10,555 nucleotides of DNA from an uncultured Fibrobacterota bacterium (lineage in GTDB: Bacteria > Fibrobacterota > Chitinivibrionia > Chitinivibrionales > WJKA01), in the NCBI GenBank assembly GCA_964571815.1, contig CAZNDN010000137.1, forward strand, positions 1 through 10,555. The letters run 5' to 3'. The position numbers were made by a program, and so were the translations under genes. Each line of letters begins with the position of its first letter. The stretch's first letter is position 1. Under the pieces are notes generated by a model. It made no database searches, was not told the origin of the DNA, and saw only the letters and a list, made by a program, of their open reading frames with translations. Shown piece after piece: positions 406 through 10,555 of the stretch.

Positions 406-434
406 TTGACATCCCGGGAAAAATGTTGTATATT
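406..434 (+). promoter_or_regulatory. Sigma70-type promoter for the GntR-led operon: -35 TTGACA (406-411), 17-nt spacer, -10 TATATT (429-434)
   Basis: Seen in sequence: a perfect TTGACA hexamer, a 17-nt spacer, and a TATATT hexamer (4/6 to TATAAT). It lies about 40 nt upstream of the first ATG of the regulator gene and 10 nt after the last in-frame stop of the upstream region. Confidence 0.6.
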
Positions 435-437
435 GCT

Positions 438-461
438 ATTGTACTGGTTAACCATAACAAT
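438..461 (+). promoter_or_regulatory. Putative GntR-family operator: 24-bp imperfect palindrome ATTGTact-GGTTAACC-ataACAAT, centred on a perfect GGTTAACC core
   Basis: Seen in sequence: the 8-bp core is a perfect palindrome and the flanking ATTGT/ACAAT arms are a perfect inverted repeat. The GT...AC arrangement matches the generic GntR operator pattern. The site starts 4 nt after the -10 hexamer, so it overlaps the expected transcription start and would support autorepression. Confidence 0.5.
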
Positions 462-475
462 CGAACAGTCGGACA

Positions 476-883
476 ATGACCATGGCATTCACGTTTTCAC
501 TCAACAGCTCAAGCGGGGTTCCGTACTATCGGCAGATAGTCAACCAGGTGATATTCGGCATTGCCAACGGCATGCTCAAACCCGGGCAGCGGCTCCCCAC
601 GGTTCGCCAACTGGCCGTCGACCTCCAGGTGAATCTCAATACTATTGTCAAGGCCTACAACGAACTTGAGCTTCGGGGCATTATCAACACGCAGCAGGGA
701 ACCGGAACGTTCGTGGCGGAAAGCGGCGATGAAGTCGATCCCGTGGAGAAGCAGAAGGGAATCGAGCGGGTGTGCGGGGCGTTTCTCGATGAGCTGGCCG
801 CACTGGGGGTCGGCACGACCGAGGCGATTGCCACACTGAAAACCATAGAAAGCAAACGCAGGAACACTTCACAAGGGAGTTAG
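476..883 (+). CDS. GntR-family transcriptional regulator, short YtrA-like subtype (winged HTH plus a ~50-aa C-terminal tail)
   Basis: The translation PYYRQIVNQVIFGIANGMLKPGQRLPTVRQLAVDLQVNLNTIVKAYNELELRGIINTQQGTGTFVA is a textbook GntR winged-helix HTH. The short C-terminal domain is typical of YtrA-subfamily members, which are commonly the first gene of ABC-transporter operons. An alternative start ATG lies at 482. Confidence 0.8.
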   Translation: MTMAFTFSLNSSSGVPYYRQIVNQVIFGIANGMLKPGQRLPTVRQLAVDLQVNLNTIVKAYNELELRGIINTQQGTGTFVAESGDEVDPVEKQKGIERVCGAFLDELAALGVGTTEAIATLKTIESKRRNTSQGS

Positions 884-886
884 CCA

Positions 887-1861
887 ATGGGAGCGAAAAC
901 CAGGGAAAAGGAGTACGAAGAGCGGCGGGAGTTCAACCCCGTGCTGTGGAGCGTGAGAAAACGACTGTTTGCACTTCGGCGATACCGGATCAACCTGATC
1001 CTGCTGATCGCGGCCGTGGTTCTCGGTATCGGCCCGTGGACTCCGGGCGTGTCGCCGTGGGTGCGGCTTGCCGCGGCGGCCGTGGTCGCGCTGGTTGGTG
1101 TGTCGATACGCGTGGCGTTTGAATGGGAGCGTGTGCCCGTGCTTCGGTTCGGACGTTTCATCAAGATCAAGGGTCCGGGCCTGTTTTTCCTGATTCCGGT
1201 TGTCGATGTTGCCTACGACTACGTGGACTGCCGGATCAAGGTCACGGATTTCTCGGCGGAGAAGGTACTGACTCGCGATGCGGTGCCGATATTCGTGGAT
1301 GCGATCATTTTCTGGATGATCTGGGATGCGGGCAAGGCGAAGCTCGAGGTGGAAAACTACCATATCGCCGTGCCGCTGAGCGCCAAAACCGCTCTTCGGG
1401 ACATTATCGGCAAGACCACTCTGGCGCGGCTGCTCACCGACCGCGACGAGATCGGGCAGGAGCTGCAGAAGATCCTCGATGCCAGGACCAATCCCTGGGG
1501 GATTACATCGCTGTCGGTGGAGATCAAGGACATCGTAGTGCCGCCGGAGCTTGAGGATGCGATCAGCAGGGAGGCGCAGGCCGAGCGTGAGAAGAACGCG
1601 CGGGTGATCCTGGGATCGGCCGAGATCGAGCTTTCGGAGCAATACGCGGAAGCATCGCGGCGCTACAAGGGCAACGAAGAGGCGCTGACGCTCAGGTCGC
1701 TGAACCTGCTGCTGGATGCGCTCAAGACCAAGGGGTCGATGATACTGGTGCCCTCGGAGGTGCCGCACGTGATGAACAAGGCCGTGGCTGCCGCCATGGC
1801 CAGGAATGCGCGGGGTGAGGGCGGATCGGGTGTGGACGAGGGGAATGTGACGGTGGAGTAG
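887..1861 (+). CDS. SPFH/band-7 domain membrane protein (stomatin/prohibitin/flotillin-like), with two N-terminal hydrophobic segments
   Basis: The start is 3 nt after the regulator stop, with an AAGGGAG SD at 873-879. The translation has an N-terminal membrane anchor (INLILLIAAVVLGIGPW and LAAAAVVALVGVSI). It is followed by an SPFH core (VLRFGRFIKIKGPGLFFLIPVVD...KVLTRDAVPIFVDAIIFWMIWDAGKA...) and a Glu/Ala-rich coiled-coil tail (EAQAEREKNARVILGSAEIELSEQYAEASRRY). Confidence 0.85.
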   Translation: MGAKTREKEYEERREFNPVLWSVRKRLFALRRYRINLILLIAAVVLGIGPWTPGVSPWVRLAAAAVVALVGVSIRVAFEWERVPVLRFGRFIKIKGPGLFFLIPVVDVAYDYVDCRIKVTDFSAEKVLTRDAVPIFVDAIIFWMIWDAGKAKLEVENYHIAVPLSAKTALRDIIGKTTLARLLTDRDEIGQELQKILDARTNPWGITSLSVEIKDIVVPPELEDAISREAQAEREKNARVILGSAEIELSEQYAEASRRYKGNEEALTLRSLNLLLDALKTKGSMILVPSEVPHVMNKAVAAAMARNARGEGGSGVDEGNVTVE

Positions 1862-2053: not shown

Positions 2054-5002
2054 ATGCGAACGAGACTGTATAGGTGGCTGGCCGGACTGGTGACCCGTCA
2101 TCCGGGCAAGGTCCTGATCGGATGTGCGGTGATGACCGTGTTGCTGCTGGCGGCCTCCGGGCGGCTGGGCATGAAAACGCAGTTTGCCGACATGCTGCCC
2201 GAGGATATCCCTCAGATCAAGGAGTTTCTGGAGATTGTCGAAGACTACGGTTCCGAATCCACGGTCATGATTACCGTGGAGAGCAGGGACAAGGACGTGA
2301 AAGGCATGCGGGCGTGCGCCGACGATCTGGCCGGACGGCTGGAGAAGATCTCTCTGCCGAAGCCCGTCGACGAAAGCAAACTCTCGATCGGACACAAAAT
2401 CGCTCTTGCCCGGGGGCGGTCCCCATCGGACATTGCCTGGGACACACTGCAGCTTGTCAAGCGTGTCGACTACAAGCTCGACAACGAGTTTGTCGCCGAG
2501 CACGGCCTGATGATTCAGAAGACCAACGACCTGGAAAGCATGATCGATATGTTCGGGTCGCTCGGGCTTCCGGGGCTTATCCGCAATATCAACGACAATT
2601 TCGAGAAGGAGTACATCGAAGACTCCGACAATCTTACCACCCTCGACGGTGAGGGGCAGGCGGTGCAGGGGCTGGAAGGCATACGCAGGTTCCTGATGAG
2701 CATCCGGCGGTATATCGACAATCCCGACTCCGAAGAGGTGGCGCGGGCCGTGGCCGATTTTGTCACCGGACCCCGGTATTTCGTGTCGCCCGACAACAGC
2801 ATGATCCTGCTCATGCTGCAGCCGACGATCAGTTTCAATGAATTCGAAGACCTGATGTATCTGGGGTACCGTATCGACGATACGCTGGGGGTGGTCCGGG
2901 AAGCGTATCCCGAGCTTGATCTGGGCCGCACGGGCGCAATGATGGTGCAGATTGACGAAAACTACGCTATGGCAAAGGACTTCGGCTGGCCGAGCCTGAT
3001 TATCCTGGCGCTTATCCTGCTGCTGTTGATCGGCTCGTTCCGCACCTGGAAGAACCCCTTCTATTCGGTCGCTACGCTGGTTGCGGGGATCGTGTGGACC
3101 GCCGGCATCCTGGCGCTGGTGCTTCACTACCTCAATATGATGTCGGCCGGATTCGGTATCGTGCTGATCGGGCTGGGTATCGATTTCGGCATACATTTCA
3201 TCTCCGGCTACCGCGACGGGCGCGAGCAGGGGATGTCGCCGAAGGACTCGATTTTCTACATGTACACGCGGGTCGGCGCCGGTGTCTGGACCGGAGCCTT
3301 GACAACCGCAATTGTCTTCTTCACCATGCCCCTGACCCGGTTCGAGGCGTACTCGCAGATGGGTCTTGCCATGGGAATCGGAATCGTCACGGTACTGATT
3401 GCCATGATGGTGATGCTGCCGGCGCTGATCGTCTGGGACAACAAGGGCTATTCGGTTGTCGGCAAGGCGCTGCGAAGACTGGGGCTCGGTTTCGTCGTCA
3501 CGGGCTGGAACGCCGCCGGCAGAGCGATTGCCGCGGTATTCCGCCTGCCGGTGTTCGGGTGGATCAGCGGCGTGTTCCAGTTCGGGTTCCTTTCGACGAT
3601 CGGGCGCCTGATCGGGCATCCCGTGGTTGCAGTCGGCGCGCTGGCGCTTAGCGGCGTGGTGGTGTACGTGTCGATCTCCGGCGGTATGAAGATGCAGTGG
3701 GAGTACGACATGATGGAGCTGTCGGCCAAGGGCGCCCTGGGGTATGTAACCCAGGAGAAGATTATCGATCACTTCGAATTCAGCCCCGACTATGCCATGG
3801 TCAAGGCCGGCAGTATTGAGGAGTGCCGCGAGATGGTGCGGGAGTACAAGAAGATCGGCAATCGCACCGGCCTGATCGGCCAGGTCGACGCGATCACCGA
3901 GTTTCTCCCGCCCCGGGACGTGCAGGAGGCCAACGCGGAGGTGATCCGACAGTTCGCGGACACGGTGCGCGCAATGCCGATCCCCGTATCCCTGGACACC
4001 GGCGGCATGCACGAGCTTTTACGGGAGCTGGAGCGGCTGCACCGGAATATCGTCGAGATCGGCGCGCTTTCGGTGATGAGCAGCGGCGAGAACAACAAGA
4101 TCGTGCGCAAGTGCGACCGGATTGTGGGGAAGCGTGATGAAGACAGTTTCATTCTGGCCCTGGCCTCGGAAGTGGGTGGGTTGGATGAGAACACGCGGGT
4201 GATCGGCGCCTACCAGAGGATCATGGCCGGCGTGCTCAAGCGCAAACTGCTCGGCATGGCCTCGACCGACTGGGTGACGTTCGAGAGTCTTCCCCATGAT
4301 ATCAGGAAGCGGTATGTCAACCCGCGAAACGACGATCTTCTGATCAACGTCTATCCCAAGGGCTATATCTGGGATGAGAAAAACCTGAGCAAATTCAACG
4401 AGCAGACCGCACGGGTATCGGAGCGCATCACCGGCATGCCGGCCCTGATGCAACTGATGATGGGGTTGATGGCGGAGAAAGGGAGACTGGCGGTGATCTT
4501 CGGGGTGTGCGCGATCGCGGTATTCCTGCTGCTTGATTTCCGCTCGCTGTTCTACACCGTACTGGCGGTCATTCCCCTGGCGGTCGGCGCAGCCTGGATG
4601 GTCGGGTGCATGGCGATGCTGGGCATGAAACTGAGCATGGTCAATTTCATGGCGCTTCCGCTCATCATTGGAATCGGTATCGATGACGGCGTGCATGTTC
4701 TTCACCGGTATCGTATTGAAGGACGGGGTTCCATGCCCCTGGTGCTCACGTATACCGGTCGGGCCATACTGCTGACATCGCTGACCACCATGATCGGTTT
4801 CGGCTCCATGGGACTGGCATCGCATCGGGGTCTTGCGGGCCTGGGGAAGACCCTGTTTTTCGGTGTCGGCTGCTGTTTTCTCAGTTCGGTGATCGTGCTG
4901 CCGGCAATCATCACACTGTGGGAGCGAATATTCAAGGCCGGGAGGGTCCGAGCGACCGCATCGGATACACAGCGGCCGGAGCTTCACGGAAAGGAAGGTT
5001 GA
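2054..5002 (+). CDS. RND-superfamily exporter of the MMPL/COG1033 type (HpnN-like putative lipid transporter), 982 aa, 12 predicted TM helices with two large periplasmic domains
   Basis: ATG at 2054 with an AGAGGAGA SD 6-7 nt upstream. The ORF track starts at an unlikely TTG at 1994. Translation shows the RND 1+5 / 1+5 TM topology with periplasmic loops of ~250 and ~300 aa. Both TM4 and TM10 carry the conserved GxxxD-type motifs: GIVLIGLGIDFGIHFISGY and PLIIGIGIDDGVHVLHRY. Confidence 0.85.
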   Translation: MRTRLYRWLAGLVTRHPGKVLIGCAVMTVLLLAASGRLGMKTQFADMLPEDIPQIKEFLEIVEDYGSESTVMITVESRDKDVKGMRACADDLAGRLEKISLPKPVDESKLSIGHKIALARGRSPSDIAWDTLQLVKRVDYKLDNEFVAEHGLMIQKTNDLESMIDMFGSLGLPGLIRNINDNFEKEYIEDSDNLTTLDGEGQAVQGLEGIRRFLMSIRRYIDNPDSEEVARAVADFVTGPRYFVSPDNSMILLMLQPTISFNEFEDLMYLGYRIDDTLGVVREAYPELDLGRTGAMMVQIDENYAMAKDFGWPSLIILALILLLLIGSFRTWKNPFYSVATLVAGIVWTAGILALVLHYLNMMSAGFGIVLIGLGIDFGIHFISGYRDGREQGMSPKDSIFYMYTRVGAGVWTGALTTAIVFFTMPLTRFEAYSQMGLAMGIGIVTVLIAMMVMLPALIVWDNKGYSVVGKALRRLGLGFVVTGWNAAGRAIAAVFRLPVFGWISGVFQFGFLSTIGRLIGHPVVAVGALALSGVVVYVSISGGMKMQWEYDMMELSAKGALGYVTQEKIIDHFEFSPDYAMVKAGSIEECREMVREYKKIGNRTGLIGQVDAITEFLPPRDVQEANAEVIRQFADTVRAMPIPVSLDTGGMHELLRELERLHRNIVEIGALSVMSSGENNKIVRKCDRIVGKRDEDSFILALASEVGGLDENTRVIGAYQRIMAGVLKRKLLGMASTDWVTFESLPHDIRKRYVNPRNDDLLINVYPKGYIWDEKNLSKFNEQTARVSERITGMPALMQLMMGLMAEKGRLAVIFGVCAIAVFLLLDFRSLFYTVLAVIPLAVGAAWMVGCMAMLGMKLSMVNFMALPLIIGIGIDDGVHVLHRYRIEGRGSMPLVLTYTGRAILLTSLTTMIGFGSMGLASHRGLAGLGKTLFFGVGCCFLSSVIVLPAIITLWERIFKAGRVRATASDTQRPELHGKEG

Positions 5003-5004
5003 TC

Positions 5005-5220
5005 ATGTCTGATGTCGGGAACACGAACCGGTTGATGCGGTCGAAGTGCGATGGGCGCTTCTCCGCCGGCGCGGTGCGCCGCGCGCTGAGAGCGCTTTCC
5101 GAGCGGGCGTCGTCTCTTTCACCACGCGGGAACCGTCGGACGGTGAGCGCGTTCTACTGGGGTCTTCCGGAACATTGTCGCCTACCGGGCGGCGGCTTCA
5201 AGGAGGTGTATCATGATTAG
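5005..5220 (+). CDS. Possible small coupling ORF (71 aa, Arg-rich, no recognisable domain) bridging the MMPL and LolA-like genes
   Basis: ATG lies 3 nt after the MMPL stop, with a strong AAGGAAGG SD 6 nt upstream (inside the MMPL 3' end). Third-codon positions are mostly G/C, like the neighbouring genes. Its stop TAG (5218-5220) overlaps the LolA-like ATG (5213) as ATGATTAG. Weaknesses: it is a sub-ORF of the 4918..5220 ORF, there are no homology signals, and the composition (R/S/G/A) could be random GC-rich sequence. Confidence 0.3.
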   Translation: MSDVGNTNRLMRSKCDGRFSAGAVRRALRALSERASSLSPRGNRRTVSAFYWGLPEHCRLPGGGFKEVYHD

Positions 5221-5947
5221 GGCTTTGTTTCTCTCGATGCTTGCGGCGCTACCCGCGGGAGCGCTCACCGTGGATGAGATACTTGACAAGATGGAGGCCA
5301 ACGAGGAGGCGCGGACATCACGCATGGAAGCGACCATGGTGGTGTATGATGTCGCCGGCAAGGAGCGGACTTCGGAGCTTATCAGCTACGGCTGCGACAA
5401 GGGTGACAAGGGGCTCATGGAGTATGTCTCGCCGGCGCGGATCAAGGGCATGAAGATGCTGATGCTCAACGACGGGGACGATATCTGGGTGTATTTCCCC
5501 CGTACCGCACGCGTGCGCAAGATCGCATCGCACCAGAAGAAGCAGTCGGTCAACAACTCCGATTTCAGCTATGAAGACCTGTCCATGCGCGACAATCGCA
5601 AGGACTATCACTGCACGCTCGCCGGTGAAGAGACAAAAGACGGCGCGGCATGCTACAAGATTGTCATGAAGGCCAGGGACCCGGAGAAGACCTATCAGAG
5701 GATAGTCATGTGGGTGGACAAGGAAAGCTTCGTTTCCGTTGCCGCCGAGTTTTTCGATGAGGACGGGCAGTTGTGGAAGCAACTGGAGGTTGACGATGTC
5801 ACCCGGATCGGCGACTACTGGACGGCCAGGACAATCGAGATGAAGGATGTCCAGAAAGGGAGCCGCACGGTGATGAAGATGGACAAGATCGAGTATGATA
5901 TCCAGCTCGATGAAAGCATGTTCAGCGAACGGTATCTGAAGAAGTAA
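5213..5947 (+). CDS. LolA-like periplasmic protein (outer-membrane lipoprotein-sorting / LolA_like family, the kind genomically paired with MMPL exporters), with signal peptide
   Basis: AGGAGGT SD 5 nt upstream. N-terminal signal peptide MIRALFLSMLAALPAGA. The mature N-terminus LTVDEILDKMEANEEARTSRMEATMVVYD matches, by memory, the characteristic start of the LolA_like family found next to RND/MMPL genes. The rest is beta-rich, consistent with an unclosed beta-barrel carrier fold. No cysteine lipobox, so it is soluble periplasmic rather than a lipoprotein. Confidence 0.55.
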   Translation: MIRALFLSMLAALPAGALTVDEILDKMEANEEARTSRMEATMVVYDVAGKERTSELISYGCDKGDKGLMEYVSPARIKGMKMLMLNDGDDIWVYFPRTARVRKIASHQKKQSVNNSDFSYEDLSMRDNRKDYHCTLAGEETKDGAACYKIVMKARDPEKTYQRIVMWVDKESFVSVAAEFFDEDGQLWKQLEVDDVTRIGDYWTARTIEMKDVQKGSRTVMKMDKIEYDIQLDESMFSERYLKK

Positions 5948-5974
5948 ACCGCCGGGGGCGGAGGGGAGGCAGGT

Positions 5975-7282
5975 ATGAAAACCATGCTGTGGGTCGTTGT
6001 TGCGCTTTTGCCGGCGGCCGCCGGAACGGACAATCTCCGCTTCGGCGGGTATGTCGAAAACGGCACATCGGTGATGCTTGCCGACGAGGAGAGCATCTCC
6101 GATGCCGCATCGGTGCGGCTTGAAGGAGACTGGGATTTCGGCAAGCGGGGCGCTATCGAGACGCATGTCCTTCTCTCGGCGGCGCTTCAGCCGCTCGACC
6201 CGAGTATCGCGTTCCGGCGGAATTCCTTTCTTGCGGACATCATGGATGAGTTGGAGCAGGGGCTCATGGCGGAGGCAGCGGACGTGCTGGGGCAGGAACC
6301 TGTGGACACCAACGAAGTGGACTCCGCTCAGCTCCGCGAGCAGGCTCGCCTGCAGCGGAAACGGCGGAAGCAGGTGGACAATCTCCTTACCTACCTGCCC
6401 TATACATCGTTTTACCCGGTGGATCGGGTTCTTCTGGACCGGGCCTTGCTGAAGCTGTATTTCGAGGGTGCTGATTTGTATATCGGTCGCCAGACTATCG
6501 CCTGGGGCACGGGCTACGCGTTCAACCCCACGGATATCTGGAACAGGAAAAACCCTCTGGATCCCACTGCCCCCAAAGTTGGTGTCAACGCCCTGCGCGC
6601 GGAGATTCCGCTAGGCATGCTCAGCGGAATCTCCCTTGTCCTGGCCCCCGGCCCCGATTTCGATCACACGAGCGGGGGCATGCGGTTGAAAGGAAACCTG
6701 GGCGGGTTCGATCTGTCCATCTCGGGCATGCGTATCATGAATGCCGACCGGGAGCTGCTGGGGTTGCCCGAGAAATGGGCGATCGGCGCGGATATGGCCG
6801 GTCAGATCGGTGATGTGGGCGTGTGGACCGAGGCCGCGGTCAACAATCCCGTGTACGATGGCATGTCGTACACCGATTTGGATTCGTTGTACGTGCAGGC
6901 TGATGCAGGGGCGGATTACACGTTTGAGTGGGGCACGTACGTCATGCTGGAGTACTACTACAACGGCCCGGGGCGCGGCGATCCCGACGACTACGGCGTG
7001 CGGGATCTGCTGTATGTGTTCACCGGTGAAACCGCCGGCTTCGGACGTCACTACCTCATGGCCGGCACGCGGCATACCTTCGGCAATTATTACCGCGTGT
7101 CCGGTTTCGTACTGGGCAATATCAGCGATCGTTCGGCCATGCTGCTGCCCTCCATTGCCTACGATTTCTCGGACAACATGACAATAGAACTCAGCTCCCA
7201 GATCGGAATCGGCGACAAGAAGCGAACCGAGTTCGGCGCAGTGTTCGGCAACCTGATGCTGACGGTCACGGGGTATTTTTAG
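5975..7282 (+). CDS. Putative outer-membrane beta-barrel protein (435 aa), with signal peptide and C-terminal aromatic residue
   Basis: GGAGG SD 5 nt upstream. Signal peptide MKTMLWVVVALLPAAAG. The C-terminus ...FGNLMLTVTGYF ends in Phe, the OMP beta-signature. There are many alternating-hydrophobic strands with G/Y/N/D-rich turns (YYRVSGFVLGNISD, MTIELSSQIGIGD, YTFEWGTYVMLEYYYNG). It also has an unusual internal charged segment, QLREQARLQRKRRKQVDN. Family not recognised. Confidence 0.6.
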   Translation: MKTMLWVVVALLPAAAGTDNLRFGGYVENGTSVMLADEESISDAASVRLEGDWDFGKRGAIETHVLLSAALQPLDPSIAFRRNSFLADIMDELEQGLMAEAADVLGQEPVDTNEVDSAQLREQARLQRKRRKQVDNLLTYLPYTSFYPVDRVLLDRALLKLYFEGADLYIGRQTIAWGTGYAFNPTDIWNRKNPLDPTAPKVGVNALRAEIPLGMLSGISLVLAPGPDFDHTSGGMRLKGNLGGFDLSISGMRIMNADRELLGLPEKWAIGADMAGQIGDVGVWTEAAVNNPVYDGMSYTDLDSLYVQADAGADYTFEWGTYVMLEYYYNGPGRGDPDDYGVRDLLYVFTGETAGFGRHYLMAGTRHTFGNYYRVSGFVLGNISDRSAMLLPSIAYDFSDNMTIELSSQIGIGDKKRTEFGAVFGNLMLTVTGYF

Positions 7283-7324
7283 TGAAGGACAGCGTGTCTC
7301 ATCTGAAACTAGTGGGAGAATCTC

Positions 7325-8020
7325 ATGCCGACAACGCTTCAACTCAAGGCAATCACGAAGGATTTCAGCAAGGGTGAGCGCACGGTCCACGCGCTTCGGG
7401 GGGTGGATCTGACTATTGACAAAGGCGAACTCCTCGCCATAGTCGGACCTTCGGGGAGCGGCAAGACCACGCTGTTGAATATTGTCGGCTGTCTGGATAC
7501 GCCGTCGGGCGGTGAGGTGGTGTACGACGGGGCGAGGCTGGGAACCATGAAAGAGGCTGAGCTGGCGGAGTACCGCAAGAAGCATATCGCCTTCATCTTC
7601 CAGTCGTACAATCTGATTCCGGTGCTCACCGTGCGCGAGAATGTGGAGCTGCCCCTGGTGATCGAGAAGAGCGTGTCGCCGGAGGAGATGAGCAGGCGGG
7701 CCATGGCCGTGATCGAGACCGTGGGGCTGCAAGGCATGGAGGACCGTCTTCCGAGGGAACTCTCCGGCGGGCAGGAGCAGCGGGTGGCGATTGCCCGCGC
7801 GCTGGTGAAGAACCCCCTGGTGGTGCTGGCCGACGAGCCCACGGCAAATCTCGATTCGCACACGGCCGAGGATATCATGAAAGTGATGGAAGAGATGAAC
7901 CGCACTCATCGGACCACGTTCATCTTCTCCACGCACGATACCATGGTACGGGATCATGCGGCGCGGGTGGTGACGTTGCATGACGGCGGTGTGGAATCGG
8001 ACGAAAGGAAGCAGGCATGA
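7325..8020 (+). CDS. ABC transporter ATP-binding protein, LolD/MacB/FtsE subfamily
   Basis: GGGAGA SD 5 nt upstream. Walker [10 protein letters not shown]; Q-loop; signature [15 protein letters not shown]; Walker [13 protein letters not shown]; H-loop FSTHD. The short 231-aa single NBD is typical of the LolD/MacB-ATPase clade that partners with FtsX-fold permeases. Confidence 0.95.
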
Positions 8021-9270
8021 GAATGATTGCACGCATTGCGGTCAGGAATATCCTTCGCCACAAGCGCCGCACAATTACTTCGGGCATCACGATCGCCGTA
8101 GGGATGTGGTTTTACACGTTCATGGATTCGGTGATGGCCGGGCTTGACCGGGGGGGTATCGACAACATGATCGAGCTGACTTCATCGGCGGTGAAAATCC
8201 GGACCGCGGAGTACGATCGGGACAAGGAGGCGTTTCCCCTGAAGCACGGTATTCCCGACGTGGAGGCAGTGCGCGAGGAACTTACTCAGGATCCGCGTGT
8301 GAGGGGGGTTGCGCCGCGCACGCGTTTTGTGGGGCAGCTTTCCAATTACACCGAGGAAGTGCCGGTGGTGGGGACGGTGGTCGAGCCGGCGGTGGACAGC
8401 ACGGTCTTTTCGCTCACTGAATACCTGATCGGCGATTACTTCTCCGGAGACAGCCGGGGAGAGATCATTCTGGGCAGGCAGTTGGCCCGGGAGATGGGGG
8501 TTGACACGGGCGGCTACATTACGCTGTATGCGTTGACGCGGTATGAAAGTCGCAACGCCGATGAGTTCAGGGTGGTGGGGCTGCTTAACACGAGCGATCC
8601 GCGGCTCAACCGGAGTTCGGTGATGATCTCCTGCGACGCGGCCGGGGAGTTTCTCGATCTGGACGGGTTGGTGACCGAAGTCAACGTGGGGCTGGAGCGG
8701 CGGGTGAACCTGGCGGATATGAAGGCCGAAGCCCGGCGGGTGAAGGAGCGGGTCGAAGAGGCCTTTCCGGCTCTGACGGCGACCACGTTCATGGAAGCGG
8801 CCGCGAGTTTTCTGGAGCTTGCCAAAAGCAAACGCGCGTTCGGGATTGTGTTCCTGATGGTCATCCTTGTGATTGCCGGCGTAGGCATATTCAACTCCGT
8901 GCTCATGAGCGTGTACGAGCGTATCCGTGAGGTCGGCGTGCTGCGCGCCCACGGCATCAAACCGTCGGAGGTCTCGACCATGTTTGTGATGGAGGGATTC
9001 ATGACCGGCGTGTTCGGCTCGGTGCTGGGGTTGATCATGGGCGTGGCGACCAATGTGGTGCTCATCACCTACGGCTATCCGATCGACAAGATTGCCGGGG
9101 ATATCGCGATGGAGGGTTTCCCTTACTGGGGCACGATATATGGTGAGTGGAATGTCGGGACGCTGCTGTTCCTGCTCGTGTTCGGCATTCTGACGGCCAC
9201 GATAGCCGGGATCATCCCGGCGCGGAAAGCCGGAAAAATGGAGGTAACGCATGCGCTTCGGTTTGTATGA
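8017..9270 (+). CDS. ABC transporter permease, FtsX/MacB fold (LolC/LolE-like): N-terminal TM1, ~230-aa periplasmic domain, three C-terminal TM helices
   Basis: Its ATG overlaps the ATPase stop as ATGA, indicating translational coupling, with an AAGGAAG SD 5 nt upstream. The N-terminus [33 protein letters not shown] is the LolC/E-type start. The C-terminal TM block [21 protein letters not shown]... is the FtsX signature region. Confidence 0.9.
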
Positions 9271-9302
9271 GCATGCAAAACGCGCAATCTGTTGTTCATG
9301 TG

Positions 9303-9326
9303 CACGAGTACGAGTACGAGCACGAG
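9303..9326 (+). repeat. Tandem hexamer repeat (CACGAG TACGAG TACGAG CACGAG) in the 80-bp gap between the two permease genes
   Basis: Seen in sequence: 4 x YACGAG. A mini-ORF (ATG 9267 to TAA 9347, 26 aa, [26 protein letters not shown]) reads the repeat as HEYEYEHE. It has no convincing SD, and its ATG overlaps the upstream permease stop. Confidence 0.5.
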
Positions 9327-9350
9327 GACTATTCCGGACAGGACTAACGT

Positions 9351-10555
9351 ATGTGGTATTTTCTGAAGCTTGCGCTTCGTAACCTTCGCCGCAACAGGCG
9401 TCGGTCTTTGCTGGCCGTGTTGTCGGTGTCGCTGGCGATTACTTTCATCGTGTTTCTTCAGGGCATGATCGGCGGGTTCATGGGTTCGCTGGTGCGCAAT
9501 TACACGCGCAGTGAAACCGGTCATGTCCGGATTGCGACCCGGGATTTCGTGGACAAAATACGTTTCTATCCGGTGACCGAGAATATCGAGAATCCGCAAT
9601 CGATTATCGAGACGGTGCGGAGCGATCCGCGGATCGCGGAGCACGTGGAGATAGTCACGGAGCGGACTAATTTCGGGGTGCTTCTGAGCCACCACGGCAA
9701 CAACCGGAACGCGGTGGCCCTGGCCGGCGATCCGGAGACCGAACGGGACCTACTGCTTCTGCACAAGTCCATTCTTCCGGGCGGGCGCTATATCCAGGGT
9801 GAACGTGAGACGATTATGGGGGCGGCGCTGGCCGAGGCGCTTGATTACGAGGTTGGCGACACGGTGAAAGTCATGGCACAGGGAAGCGACTATGCGCTTC
9901 ATCTTCGAAAATTGGCGATTGTGGGCCTGTTCGAATCGGGACTCAGGGAGATGGATGAGCGCATTTTTCAGATGTCGCTCAGTGATGCCAGGGAGCTGCT
10001 GCGTATGCGCACGGCGACTCAGCAGATTGTTATCATGCTTGACGATTATCATCGTGCCGGCGCGGTTGCCGGGGCGTTGCAAAGCGCAATCGGCGACACG
10101 ACGCTGTCGATTCAGTCGTGGAGAGACGCGGGCATATACGGCGACTACGTCACCATGGCCTCGAACGTGTACGGGATCATCTACCTGGTGATTGCGCTGC
10201 TGGGAACGTTTATTATCGGCAATATCATGATGATGGTGGTGCTGGAGCGGCGGCGGGAGATCGGTGTGCTCAAGTCAATGGGCTTCTCGCGTCGTGGGAT
10301 CCTGGTTTTGTTCGTAATGGAAGGCTTGCTGCTGGGGCTGGCCGGAAGTCTGGCCGGCGTAATCGGCGGGACTGGGGTGTCGCTGTATTTTCATGTTTTC
10401 GGCCTTGACTTCACCAGCGCCCTCAGCTCGGTAAGCATGCCCATGGACAACGTGGTATACACCACGATCGAAGTCGGCGGTCTGATTCAGGCGCTTGTTC
10501 TGGGAACAATCGTTGCGGGCGTGGTCTCCTTGATCCCGTCATGGCAGGCCGCGAG
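9351..10555 (+). CDS. Second FtsX/MacB-fold ABC permease (LolC/LolE-like paralogue), 3'-partial: 401 codons seen and no stop within the window
   Basis: AGGA SD 7 nt upstream. It is absent from the ORF track only because it runs off the window. Translation starts MWYFLKLALRNLRRNRRRSLLAVLSVSLAITFIVFLQGMIGGF (TM1). A periplasmic domain follows, then the FtsX signature block IIYLVIALLGTFIIGNIMMMVVLERRREIGVLKSMGFSRRGILVLFVMEGLLLGLAGSLAG. No internal stops up to position 10553. Confidence 0.9.
   Translation, partial: MWYFLKLALRNLRRNRRRSLLAVLSVSLAITFIVFLQGMIGGFMGSLVRNYTRSETGHVRIATRDFVDKIRFYPVTENIENPQSIIETVRSDPRIAEHVEIVTERTNFGVLLSHHGNNRNAVALAGDPETERDLLLLHKSILPGGRYIQGERETIMGAALAEALDYEVGDTVKVMAQGSDYALHLRKLAIVGLFESGLREMDERIFQMSLSDARELLRMRTATQQIVIMLDDYHRAGAVAGALQSAIGDTTLSIQSWRDAGIYGDYVTMASNVYGIIYLVIALLGTFIIGNIMMMVVLERRREIGVLKSMGFSRRGILVLFVMEGLLLGLAGSLAGVIGGTGVSLYFHVFGLDFTSALSSVSMPMDNVVYTTIEVGGLIQALVLGTIVAGVVSLIPSWQAA

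Follow-up and report, generated by a model that had tools for sequence, protein, structure and literature searches.

A type VII ABC transporter resembling Lol, and its conserved neighborhood of LolA-like and outer-membrane barrel genes, in an uncultured Fibrobacterota bacterium

Introduction

In diderm bacteria, the routes by which lipids and further hydrophobic molecules leave the inner membrane and reach the outer one are only partly understood. The closest described counterparts of the ABC transporter genes analyzed here are the Lol systems, represented by LolCDE-LolA-LolB of Escherichia coli and by the homodimeric LolDF of Acinetobacter and Francisella. These have a separate ATPase gene, type VII permeases with four transmembrane (TM) helices and a Sabre/Porter periplasmic domain, a LolA-fold partner, and no membrane fusion protein (MFP). 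The module described below shares each of these features, and resembles LolC/LolE further in having two paralogous permeases. It differs from the Lol systems in its sequences (19-22% identity, with scores below cut-off), in its carrier (PF17131 rather than the PF03548 family of LolA), in its outer-membrane (OM) partner (an 18-strand barrel rather than the lipoprotein LolB), and in an operon that stands under a putative repressor and is plasmid-borne in some hosts.

Other known systems resemble the module in part. Pumps of the MacAB-TolC and DevCBA types have the type VII permease superfamily and the ATPase family in common with it, but the module lacks a fused nucleotide-binding domain (NBD), an MFP, and a TolC-type duct, and MacB falls below Lol in every profile and fold ranking. 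In YtrEF of Bacillus subtilis (PDB 9o9x), as in our locus, a short GntR/YtrA-type regulator precedes an FtsX-type ABC transporter; the host, however, is monoderm, and there is no LolA-like or OM barrel partner. The only similar cluster that we found in the literature is BBJ23-29 of Borrelia (Nixon et al. 2026, PMC13078400), described by computation only. It too encodes an ATPase, a type VII permease, a LolA-like 'OM lipoprotein-sorting protein', and then a protein of unknown function, but it has a single (homodimeric) permease, extra TPR proteins, and an Omp85-family barrel. Literature searches on TP0789/PF17131 and on FtsX with LolA-like proteins turned up no experiments on the ABC-type module.

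A second group of systems combines an MMPL transporter with a LolA-like protein and a porin: P. gingivalis PG1175-81, operons of Prevotella intermedia, Thalassolituus TOL_3187/3188, and aryl-polyene clusters. The same logic is seen at 2054-7282 of our locus, and the carrier and barrel families of these modules are the families that partner the ABC transporter. The known MMPL modules differ in having a motor of the RND type, driven by proton-motive force (PMF), rather than an ABC motor, and TetR regulators rather than the GntR regulator found here. MMPL-type operons are up 13- to >200-fold under iron/hemin limitation (PMC10434189, PMC10470040), and TOL_3187/3188 is up 42-fold on C28 alkane; MMPL::LolA-like fusions exist, with a porin gene adjoining (PMC6304351).

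Results

Organization of the operon

The DNA examined, hereafter the window, is the complete 10,555-nt contig CAZNDN010000137.1 from the metagenome-assembled genome GCA_964571815.1 of an uncultured Fibrobacterota bacterium (WJKA01). A contig 99.5% identical to the window, L096, extends past its 3' end, and downstream genes are also readable in a close relative at 95%, L001. Among the other loci compared, L006 has an ABC-only operon and L008 an MMPL-only operon. An exact-sequence database look-up for permease 1 gave no match, and relatives were reached via homologues. Cultured Chitinivibrionia are not among the matches listed, which says nothing on whether they lack the module.

All genes of the window discussed here lie on the forward strand. 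The first two encode a short GntR-family regulator of YtrA-like size (476..883, 135 aa; PF00392, E=7e-15), with its HTH at residues 18-80, and an SPFH/Band 7 membrane protein (887..1861; PF01145, E=2e-31). The best NCBIfam matches of the regulator are both below cut-off: the Rv1152 family at 80.6 bits against 170, and PmtR at 59.8 against 200. An MMPL/HAE3-type RND transporter follows (2054..5002; PF03176, E=2e-32), the predicted motor of what we call module 1. Its ORF opens at a TTG at 1994, relatives begin at the ATG at 2054, and orthologues are called at 982 aa. It scores 311 bits against HpnN (TIGR03480, cut-off 752), 211 against HAE3, and 204 against BstA; such an HpnN/BstA/HAE3-like pump in the paralogous module is a hint of lipid. 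The predicted carrier and OM part of module 1 are a LolA-like periplasmic protein (5213..5947; PF17131, E=2e-60), which carries a signal peptide and lacks a lipobox Cys, and an 18-stranded OM beta-barrel (5975..7282) with a helical insertion at residues 85-143.

The ABC genes come next. An ATPase of LolD/MacB-NBD type (7325..8020, 231 aa; PF00005, E=8e-36), the predicted motor of module 2, is coupled by an ATGA overlap at 8017-8020, as the first-pass annotation had noted, to type VII permease 1 (8017..9270, 417 aa; PF12704 MacB_PCD and PF02687 FtsX). Type VII permease 2 begins at the ATG at 9351 and runs to the contig end (9351..10555; PF12704, PF02687), which cuts it after 401 of 412 codons; its full length and C-terminus, including the 11 missing codons, were taken from L096. 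The two permeases are 23% identical and have the same Pfam domains, and the description of the locus as one ATPase gene with a pair of paralogous type VII permeases, made at first sight, stands by gene content and by the presence of MacB_PCD and FtsX in both. The spacer between the permease genes, 81 bp, contains a putative 26-codon ORF (9267..9347), made up mostly of a GAGTAC/GAGCAC hexamer repeat, that is ATGA-coupled to permease 1 and stops 3 nt 5' of the permease 2 ATG. The small ORF between the permeases has 24 aa in L096 and 80 aa in L001. An Rfam search of the window found no RNA family, and a terminator scan of the window stayed at chance level, with no site convincingly inside an intergenic gap.

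The transporter is nearer to Lol than to MacB

The ATPase has intact Walker A, Q-loop, LSGGQ, Walker B/DEP, and H-loop motifs, and is 43% identical to E. coli LolD, 42% to the MacB NBD, and 37% to FtsE. It does not reach the LolD equivalog model TIGR02211 (223.1 bits, cut-off 307.75), nor do the permeases reach the LolC/E equivalog TIGR02212 (117.4 and 129.9 bits, cut-off 362.45). A profile of permease 2 orthologs, compared with PDB sequences, finds LolF at 7e-44, LolE at 4e-35, LolC at 5e-28, and MacB at 6e-18, and the profile ranking for the permeases runs from LolF through LolE and LolC to YtrF/MacB and finally FtsX. YtrF is among the best PDB sequence matches, covering the C-terminal half, and is the top match of permease 1 (3e-18) in a single-sequence search. 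The AF2 model of permease 1 (pLDDT 84) has four TM helices, with TM1 at residues 16-56 and TM2 at 263-303, and a periplasmic domain of ~205 aa, smaller than the ~230 aa first estimated. A Foldseek search with this model places LolE first (TM-score 0.68, E=5e-25) and LolC next, with MacB at 0.44-0.49 and YtrF at 0.45. The ATPase and two permeases make up a type VII ABC transporter nearer to Lol than to MacB.

Nearness to Lol does not appear to mean membership in it. A neighbor-joining tree that resolves only shallow clades groups E. coli LolC and LolE with Acinetobacter LolF at 92% bootstrap, and all module permeases lie outside this group. The N-terminus, initially read as LolC/E-type, turns out to be a generic amphipathic helix of FtsX/MacB type: its sequence, ALRNLxRNxRR, is found also in the E. 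coli plasmid homologue, whereas E. coli LolC and LolE have GLR(Y/F)xRGR. In LolC and LolF, a Hook hairpin recruits LolA; that of LolC (aa 167-179) is essential in vivo (PMC10865981). The permease 1 model has a hairpin at the homologous position, with strands 167-173 and 179-190, and the hairpin of both paralogues is uniformly 6 residues shorter than that of LolC and 5 shorter than those of LolE/LolF. The periplasmic domain resembles Hook-deleted LolC (TMt 0.72-0.74) a little more closely than intact LolC (0.64-0.71). The Hook is known to be variable in sequence; with a Hook 5-6 residues shorter in every member, docking of a LolA-like protein on a permease is putative. Taken with the sub-cut-off scores and the tree, the short Hook suggests that the module permeases are not LolC/E members. 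In the comparison proposed at the outset, the permeases are by profile and fold nearer to LolF, LolE, and LolC than to MacB, YtrF, or FtsX, but they sit outside the LolC/E/F clade.

Partner genes past the window and conserved gene order

The LolA-like protein encoded within the window is only 32-35% identical to ABC-linked LolA-like proteins. A second PF17131 LolA-like gene lies 3' of permease 2 in L096, and the downstream protein is 60-65% identical to the sole LolA-like protein of ABC-only operons; these identities rule out the in-window LolA-like gene as the partner of the transporter. A barrel gene comes after the downstream LolA-like gene in L001, L004, L006, L010, and others, and the transporter's own carrier and barrel genes are thus predicted to lie just past the 3' end of the window. 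LolA-like genes of the in-window type accompany MMPL in L008 and L009, and an orthologous operon in Chitinispirillum alkaliphilum has MMPL-type LolA-like and OMP genes with no ABC genes at the locus. The first-pass annotation had proposed the co-operonic LolA-like protein and OMP as partners of the transporter, a proposal that fails for the MMPL-linked pair in the window and holds for the pair downstream. Because the in-window LolA-like and barrel genes are paralogues that travel with MMPL, the operon consists of two modules in tandem, each of the form "motor + LolA-like + barrel". A GntR-SPFH pair stands ahead of them, together with a conserved promoter and a palindrome as putative operator.

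Synteny was counted over GTDB loci with enough sequence, 70 in all among the matches listed. A PF17131-type gene lies no more than 2.5 kb downstream of the permease gene or genes in 65 of these; the LolA-like neighbor, first taken for an unusual arrangement, is the rule for the family. Among the same matches, the synteny spans Fibrobacterota, Cloacimonadota, Spirochaetota, Myxococcota, Desulfobacterota, and Nitrospirota, and there are two permeases per locus in 47 cases and one in 23. The order ATPase, permease(s), PF17131 protein, barrel is kept across phyla.

An MFP gene just beyond the window edge, named at first as a possible sign of a MacB-type pump, was looked for and not found. Profile searches found none in the window, and none lies downstream in L096, L001, L004, or L006. 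With E. coli MacA as the phmmer query, the complete ORF set of L001-L089 yielded a single match; it lies in L034 and is part of a separate pump. Distinctness from MacB, asserted from the start, is upheld by this absence within and after the operon and by Lol outranking MacB in profile and fold.

The four-gene set is found also on plasmids of B. thailandensis (barrel E=1e-84) and E. coli (barrel E=5e-13). The E. coli module occurs in 2 of 5,426 complete genomes and is always plasmid-borne, with ketoacyl-synthase-like and crotonase genes as neighbors; E. coli lolCDE is chromosomal. Since the homologous modules are plasmid-borne in E. coli and Burkholderia, they are accessory in those hosts. Against the permease 2 profile, the permease of Borrelia anserina scores E=2e-42, which does not surpass LolF, and a Treponemataceae query reaches it only weakly. 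When the LolA-like protein and permease 2 of Chitinivibrionia served as queries, tblastn did not reach Borrelia lp38-type plasmids, and the module profiles did not detect the Borrelia LolA-like and unknown-function proteins. With its partners undetected and its permease scoring no higher than LolF, orthology to BBJ28/BBJ29 is not claimed.

Carriers and barrels

The window carrier scores 203.9 bits and the downstream copy of L001 180.1 bits against PF17131 (cut-off 30); the linked carriers match at 2e-60 and 4e-53. Canonical LolA families are not reached: 17.9 bits against 23.6 for PF03548, 22.8 against 112 for TIGR00547, and 31 against 100 for LolA1_Flavo. PDB entries related to PF17131 carriers (9tp6, 4z48, 3bk5, 3buu) are all uncharacterised.

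The barrel model is confident, with 18 strands in a porin/AlgE/Wzi-like fold. It is predicted to be monomeric and of the OprD/AlgE/Wzi class, with ChiP, the OprD/Occ family, and maltoporin as nearest folds. A LolB analogue as OM partner is ruled out by this porin-like barrel. Barrel families O435 and O380 align with an hhalign probability of 99.9%. The barrel family has ~8,300 cluster representatives and no domain model or annotation, and Pfam searches of the barrels at E<=5 gave nothing useful. BLASTP finds the barrel gene in only 23 of 59 loci, which may reflect divergence or a barrel that is not obligatory.

A shared promoter and candidate operator

The best promoter match in the window precedes the GntR gene: a sigma-70-like TTGACA-17 nt-TATATT with 11 of 12 positions matching (406..434, forward strand). 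Across five orthologous intergenic regions that otherwise cannot be aligned, neither hexamer varies. An inverted repeat, ATTGTACTGGTTAACCATAACAAT (438..461), with 13-nt arms that are 85% complementary, overlaps the predicted transcription start, and is kept in the window, L001, L010, the ABC-only operon of L006, and the MMPL-only operon of L008. It is probably a GntR/YtrA operator, and its position beside the -10 element fits autorepression by GntR. Promoter and palindrome precede ABC-type and MMPL-type operons alike. In loci of Chitinivibrionia and Spirochaetota, the SPFH/Band 7 gene comes after GntR and ahead of the transporter genes, and in loci of both groups other than the window the GntR-Band7 pair directly heads the ABC genes. 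The suggested link between a GntR regulator and an FtsX-type ABC operon is borne out by both observations.

Discussion

We lean toward reading the ABC genes of the window as an accessory Lol-like type VII extractor that feeds a PF17131 carrier and an 18-strand barrel, in tandem with an MMPL paralogue. The ATPase and two permeases would form a heterodimeric extractor of the mechanotransmission type, in which ATP hydrolysis moves the periplasmic domains and hydrophobic cargo is lifted from the outer leaflet of the inner membrane. Next in line would be the soluble PF17131 LolA-like carrier, which would pass the cargo on to the 18-stranded OM barrel. Module 1 (2054-7282), with its MMPL pump, LolA-like carrier, and barrel, would be the tandem paralogue driven by PMF, and the YtrA-type GntR protein would repress both modules from the single promoter and operator. 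The inner-membrane and periplasmic steps would be Lol-like, and the system itself accessory. By analogy, the four-part system of ATPase, permeases, LolA-like carrier, and OM barrel probably moves greasy cargo to the outer membrane; outward direction and a hydrophobic class of cargo are what that analogy suggests. A lipid or other non-protein amphiphile seems a more likely cargo than bulk lipoproteins, although a lipoprotein may be carried.

The best surviving alternative, which we consider unlikely, is a MacB/YtrEF-style pump that expels an antibiotic, peptide, or toxin under envelope stress, the LolA-like protein and barrel replacing MFP and TolC. YtrA-type GntR regulators are tied, as a family, to FtsX-type export and resistance operons, and the regulator here has a PmtR-like match; MacB-family pumps export peptides and toxins; the modeled barrel is channel-like; and YtrF is the top single-sequence PDB match of permease 1. 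An MFP is absent from every module, however, and a LolA-fold carrier, going by its family, is a shuttle for hydrophobic cargo rather than a sealed conduit. Lol also stands above MacB and YtrF in profile and fold rankings, and the paralogous module is powered by a lipid-type MMPL pump.

It is quite improbable that the genes are a highly diverged housekeeping LolCDE of the lineage that delivers every OM lipoprotein to a LolA of PF17131 type. The best NCBIfam matches of all three proteins are LolD and LolC/E, LolE is the best structural match, and the permease arrangement is heterodimeric; L004 has an lgt gene ~3 kb past the 3' end of the module, and a Fibrobacter succinogenes protein with LolA and LolA_like motifs has been listed as a Lol component (PMC6851124). 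Scores that fall far short of equivalog level (permeases 117 and 130 bits, cut-off 362; ATPase 223, cut-off 308) and of the LolA model (carrier 22.8, cut-off 112) argue otherwise, as do the position of all module permeases outside the 92%-bootstrap LolC/E/F clade, the repressor-type GntR regulator at the head of the operon, the absence of ABC genes from the orthologous C. alkaliphilum locus, and homologous modules that are rare plasmid cargo beside a chromosomal lolCDE in E. coli.

Least probable is inward transport, whether uptake or Mla-like retrograde traffic, in which a hydrophobic nutrient or displaced lipid would enter through the barrel, cross the periplasm on the LolA-like protein, and be inserted or retrieved at the inner membrane by the ABC or MMPL protein, even though the barrel is closest in fold to uptake channels, the Thalassolituus MMPL::LolA-like protein and adjacent porin are induced on C28 alkane (PMC6304351), and iron/hemin limitation, a typical inducer of uptake, induces the Bacteroidota MMPL-LolA-like operons (PMC10434189, PMC10470040).

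We put forward tentatively, as less probable than not, a broader proposal: that one carrier-barrel route accepts two unrelated motors, either the type VII ABC extractor resembling Lol or the RND pump of MMPL type, and that this operon has both side by side under one envelope-stress-type regulator. If true, LolA-fold shuttles would be general trans-periplasmic lipid carriers for dedicated OM barrels, beyond lipoprotein chaperoning. The locus offers a clean, testable case of a Lol-like extractor whose conserved partners, in place of LolA and LolB, are a LolA-fold carrier of non-canonical type and a dedicated barrel of 18 strands, and the same type of carrier-barrel pair also partners an MMPL pump. 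In oral Bacteroidota pathogens, the genes with the strongest induction under iron/hemin limitation include related MMPL versions, and ABC versions occur on E. coli and Burkholderia plasmids and in spirochaetes. The identity of the cargo would give function to thousands of 'hypothetical' genes, and could uncover a new pathway of envelope biogenesis or export.

A type VII ABC transporter beside an MMPL-driven module

The window spans an entire MAG contig (10,555 bp) with relatives among the Chitinivibrionales/Chitinispirillaceae (phylum Fibrobacterota), and ORF calls, Pfam and NCBIfam place every real gene on the plus strand. A 135-aa GntR regulator (476-883) and an SPFH/Band 7 protein (887-1861) precede an MMPL/HAE3-type RND pump (1994/2054-5002; HpnN 311 bits and BstA 204 bits, both below cut-off), a PF17131 LolA-like protein (5213-5947; E=2e-60) and a 435-aa protein without a family match, predicted to form an 18-strand barrel (5975-7282). 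The ABC ATPase (7325-8020), permease 1 (8017-9270), a 26-codon repeat ORF (9267-9347) and permease 2 (9351-10555) follow. Permease 2 runs off the end and lacks its last 11 codons, which are present in L096, a longer contig 99.5% identical across the whole window. The MMPL ORF opens at TTG 1994, orthologues are called at 982 aa from ATG 2054, and the first 20 codons (1994-2053) are probably untranslated.

The first-pass annotation had described the ABC genes as a LolCDE-like transporter served by the neighboring LolA-like and outer membrane protein genes. The observation stands, and so does the reading as a Lol-like extractor; membership in LolC/E and the partnership with those neighbors do not. 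The transporter is a genuine type VII ABC extractor, like Lol but not Lol itself, and is part of a widespread, uncharacterised four-part module, of which the window holds only the first three genes, and beside it lies a complete paralogous module driven by the MMPL pump.

Classification of the permeases

The annotation had correctly placed the ATPase and its ATGA overlap with permease 1. All catalytic motifs are present in the ATPase, whose sequence identity is 43% with E. coli LolD, 42% with the MacB NBD and 37% with FtsE. Both permeases, 23% identical to each other, contain MacB_PCD and FtsX domains. Their periplasmic domain, put at first at about 230 aa, comes to about 205 aa by AF2 modelling (pLDDT 84), and the N-terminal signature ALRNLxRNxRR, taken as LolC/E-type, is a general feature of FtsX/MacB-type permeases; its counterpart in E. 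coli LolC and LolE is GLR(Y/F)xRGR.

The best NCBIfam match of both permeases is LolC/E, at 117 and 130 bits against a cut-off of 362. Searched against PDB sequences, the permease 1 profile ranks LolF (5e-30), LolE (6e-28), YtrF (6e-27), LolC (4e-16) and MacB (6e-12), and that of permease 2 ranks LolF (7e-44), LolE (4e-35), LolC (5e-28), YtrF (6e-20) and MacB (6e-18). By Foldseek, the permease 1 model is closest to LolE (TM 0.68), then LolC (0.54), MacB (0.44-0.49) and YtrF (0.45), with HrtB, YbbP, BceB and FtsX next. The phylogeny that the annotation had proposed, run as a neighbor-joining tree of module permeases with genuine E. coli LolC, LolE, MacB and FtsX and fragments of LolF and YtrF, has a LolC/E/F clade at 92% bootstrap that leaves out all module permeases. 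The permease 2 orthologues group together at 79%, in a tree whose branching order is supported only for shallow clades. Among solved structures, Lol proteins are the nearest relatives, but the module permeases do not belong to the Lol family.

A MacB-type transporter would need a membrane fusion protein (MFP), and its gene might have lain just downstream. When all ORFs of the 89 loci retrieved were searched with MacA, the single match was part of an unrelated pump, and the sequence 3' of permease 2 in L096 and in L001, a relative with a 95%-identical permease 1, holds no MFP gene, in agreement with the absence reported earlier.

The LolA-recruiting Hook hairpin of LolC (aa 167-179) is essential for LolA recruitment, and its sequence tolerates many changes (PMC10865981). 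In every module permease the hairpin is 5-6 residues shorter by three independent alignments, a shortening common to both paralogues, to single-permease forms and to an E. coli plasmid copy; MacB lacks 11 residues at this position. The AF2 model of permease 1 retains a hairpin (strands 167-173 and 179-190), and by Foldseek the fit of the periplasmic domain to LolC lacking the Hook is marginally closer than that to the intact protein.

The small ORF between the permeases shares an ATGA with the permease 1 stop, and 3 nt separate its end from the permease 2 ATG. Most of it is a GAGTAC/GAGCAC hexamer repeat that specifies (E/D)(Y/H) dipeptides (repeat core 9304-9326). Its predicted product is 26 aa long in the window, 24 in L096 (about 13293-13367) and 80 in L001 (11245-11487), ends in EDYSGQD in all three, and is absent from more distant relatives. 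The ORF may be a spacer whose repeat number varies or, alternatively, encode an acidic, His-rich micropeptide.

An ABC module and an MMPL module in tandem

L096 reaches 953 bp further than the window and shows permease 2 complete at 412 aa, followed by a second PF17131 LolA-like gene; in L001, a gene for a 380-aa protein comes after the corresponding LolA-like gene. Three simpler relatives (L004, L006 and L010) have the order [GntR-Band7]-ATPase-permease 1-permease 2-LolA-like-barrel without an MMPL gene. Conversely, the operon of Chitinispirillum alkaliphilum, GntR-Band7-MMPL-LolA-like-barrel, is free of ABC genes, and MMPL-LolA-like-barrel occurs alone on another contig. The existence of ABC-only and MMPL-only operons implies that the window joins two self-contained modules in tandem. 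The downstream LolA-like protein of L001 is 60-65% identical to those of ABC-only operons, whereas the one within the window (5213-5947) is merely 32-35% identical to them. Identity and synteny therefore assign the in-window LolA-like and outer membrane protein genes to the MMPL module rather than to the ABC transporter.

The self-contained module of MMPL pump, PF17131 protein and 18-strand barrel spans 2054-7282 in the window, 5674-11287 in L008 and 4424-11263 in L009; in the last, a distant example, a 649-aa protein with an N-glycanase_C domain (7286-9235) is encoded between the MMPL and LolA-like genes. In one Fibrobacterota MAG (L013, 6552-8550) the MMPL gene lies 3' of the ABC module, as opposed to 5' in the window, so the modules were joined more than once or rearranged.

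The barrel family (window 5975-7282) has no Pfam or NCBIfam model, and in a library of 1.84 billion proteins 8,277 cluster representatives match it at E<=1e-3, 1,077 of them at E<=1e-30. The ABC-linked proteins of 365-402 aa are homologous to the window barrel (hhalign 99.9%, E=2e-34, 314 columns). A long helical hairpin (residues 85-143) is inserted between strands 3 and 4 of the barrel model; most of this hairpin appears to be missing from the shorter paralogues linked to ABC genes.

Distribution and regulation

A scan with the permease 1 profile, using one genome per GTDB species, found at least 80 loci, and the 70 listed loci with at least 800 bp of downstream sequence were the base of the synteny counts. 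Among the matches listed, a PF17131-type gene lies within 2.5 kb downstream in 65 of 70, and two permeases occur in 47 and one in 23. Of the 47 listed loci with enough upstream sequence, 8, from Chitinivibrionia and Spirochaetota, have Band7 immediately upstream, and 7 of these 8 have a GntR gene as well.

The only similar ABC-type cluster that we found in the literature is Borrelia BBJ23-29, for which a computational study proposes the same kind of function (PMC13078400). The Borrelia permease is a detectable homolog (E=2e-42); our profiles detected neither the LolA-like protein of that cluster nor the uncharacterised protein that follows it. Under iron or hemin limitation, expression of MMPL-type relatives rises 13- to >200-fold in P. 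gingivalis (PG1175-81) and Prevotella intermedia (PMC10434189, PMC10470040), and in Thalassolituus, where a single fused protein combines MMPL and LolA-like parts, induction is seen on C28 alkane (PMC6304351).

The best sigma-70-like site of the window (406-434; 11/12 positions, -35 TTGACA, -10 TATATT) lies just 5' of the GntR gene and is directly followed by a 24-nt palindrome (438-461), likely a GntR/YtrA operator, through which we infer that the GntR protein represses the operon. Promoter and palindrome are invariant in five orthologous regions that are otherwise unalignable, and they head ABC-only, MMPL-only and combined operons. Intergenic gaps in the window operon are short, or the genes overlap, and a terminator scan of the window found no credible terminator between genes. 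Together these features support the single regulatory unit that the first-pass annotation had suggested.

Accessory status and possible cargo

Indirect evidence favours an accessory over a housekeeping role for the ABC module, because the Lol equivalog cut-offs are missed and the carrier and outer membrane partner are non-canonical, because a GntR regulator heads the operon, and because homologous four-gene modules are plasmid-borne. One such module, with a barrel matching the window's barrel family at E=1e-84, is on a B. thailandensis plasmid (NZ_CP068711.1, 3165-8266); here the LolA-like gene comes first, the two permeases are fused (832 aa), and the order ends with the barrel and a UbiB-family kinase. 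The E. coli copy, found in 2 of 5,426 complete genomes and always plasmid-borne, contrasts with the chromosomal lolCDE of that species. On the IncK2/Z plasmid NZ_CP060062.1 (13114-26274) of a human-gut E. coli, genes for an ATPase, an FtsX permease, a LolA-like protein and a barrel sit among ketoacyl-synthase-like, PfkB kinase, crotonase and GNAT genes; the ensemble resembles a small biosynthetic cluster of lipid or polyketide type that carries its own exporter.

In the mechanism that we propose, the heterodimeric permease would extract a hydrophobic cargo from the inner membrane by ATP-driven mechanotransmission, the soluble PF17131 carrier would then take it over, and the 18-strand barrel would move it into or across the outer membrane. 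PF17131 carriers have signal peptides, and most lack a lipobox. The paralogous module runs on an HpnN/BstA-like MMPL pump, MMPL::LolA-like fusions adjoin a porin gene (PMC6304351), and the E. coli copy has a biosynthetic context; these comparisons point indirectly to a cargo that may be a lipid or other amphiphile, away from bulk lipoproteins.
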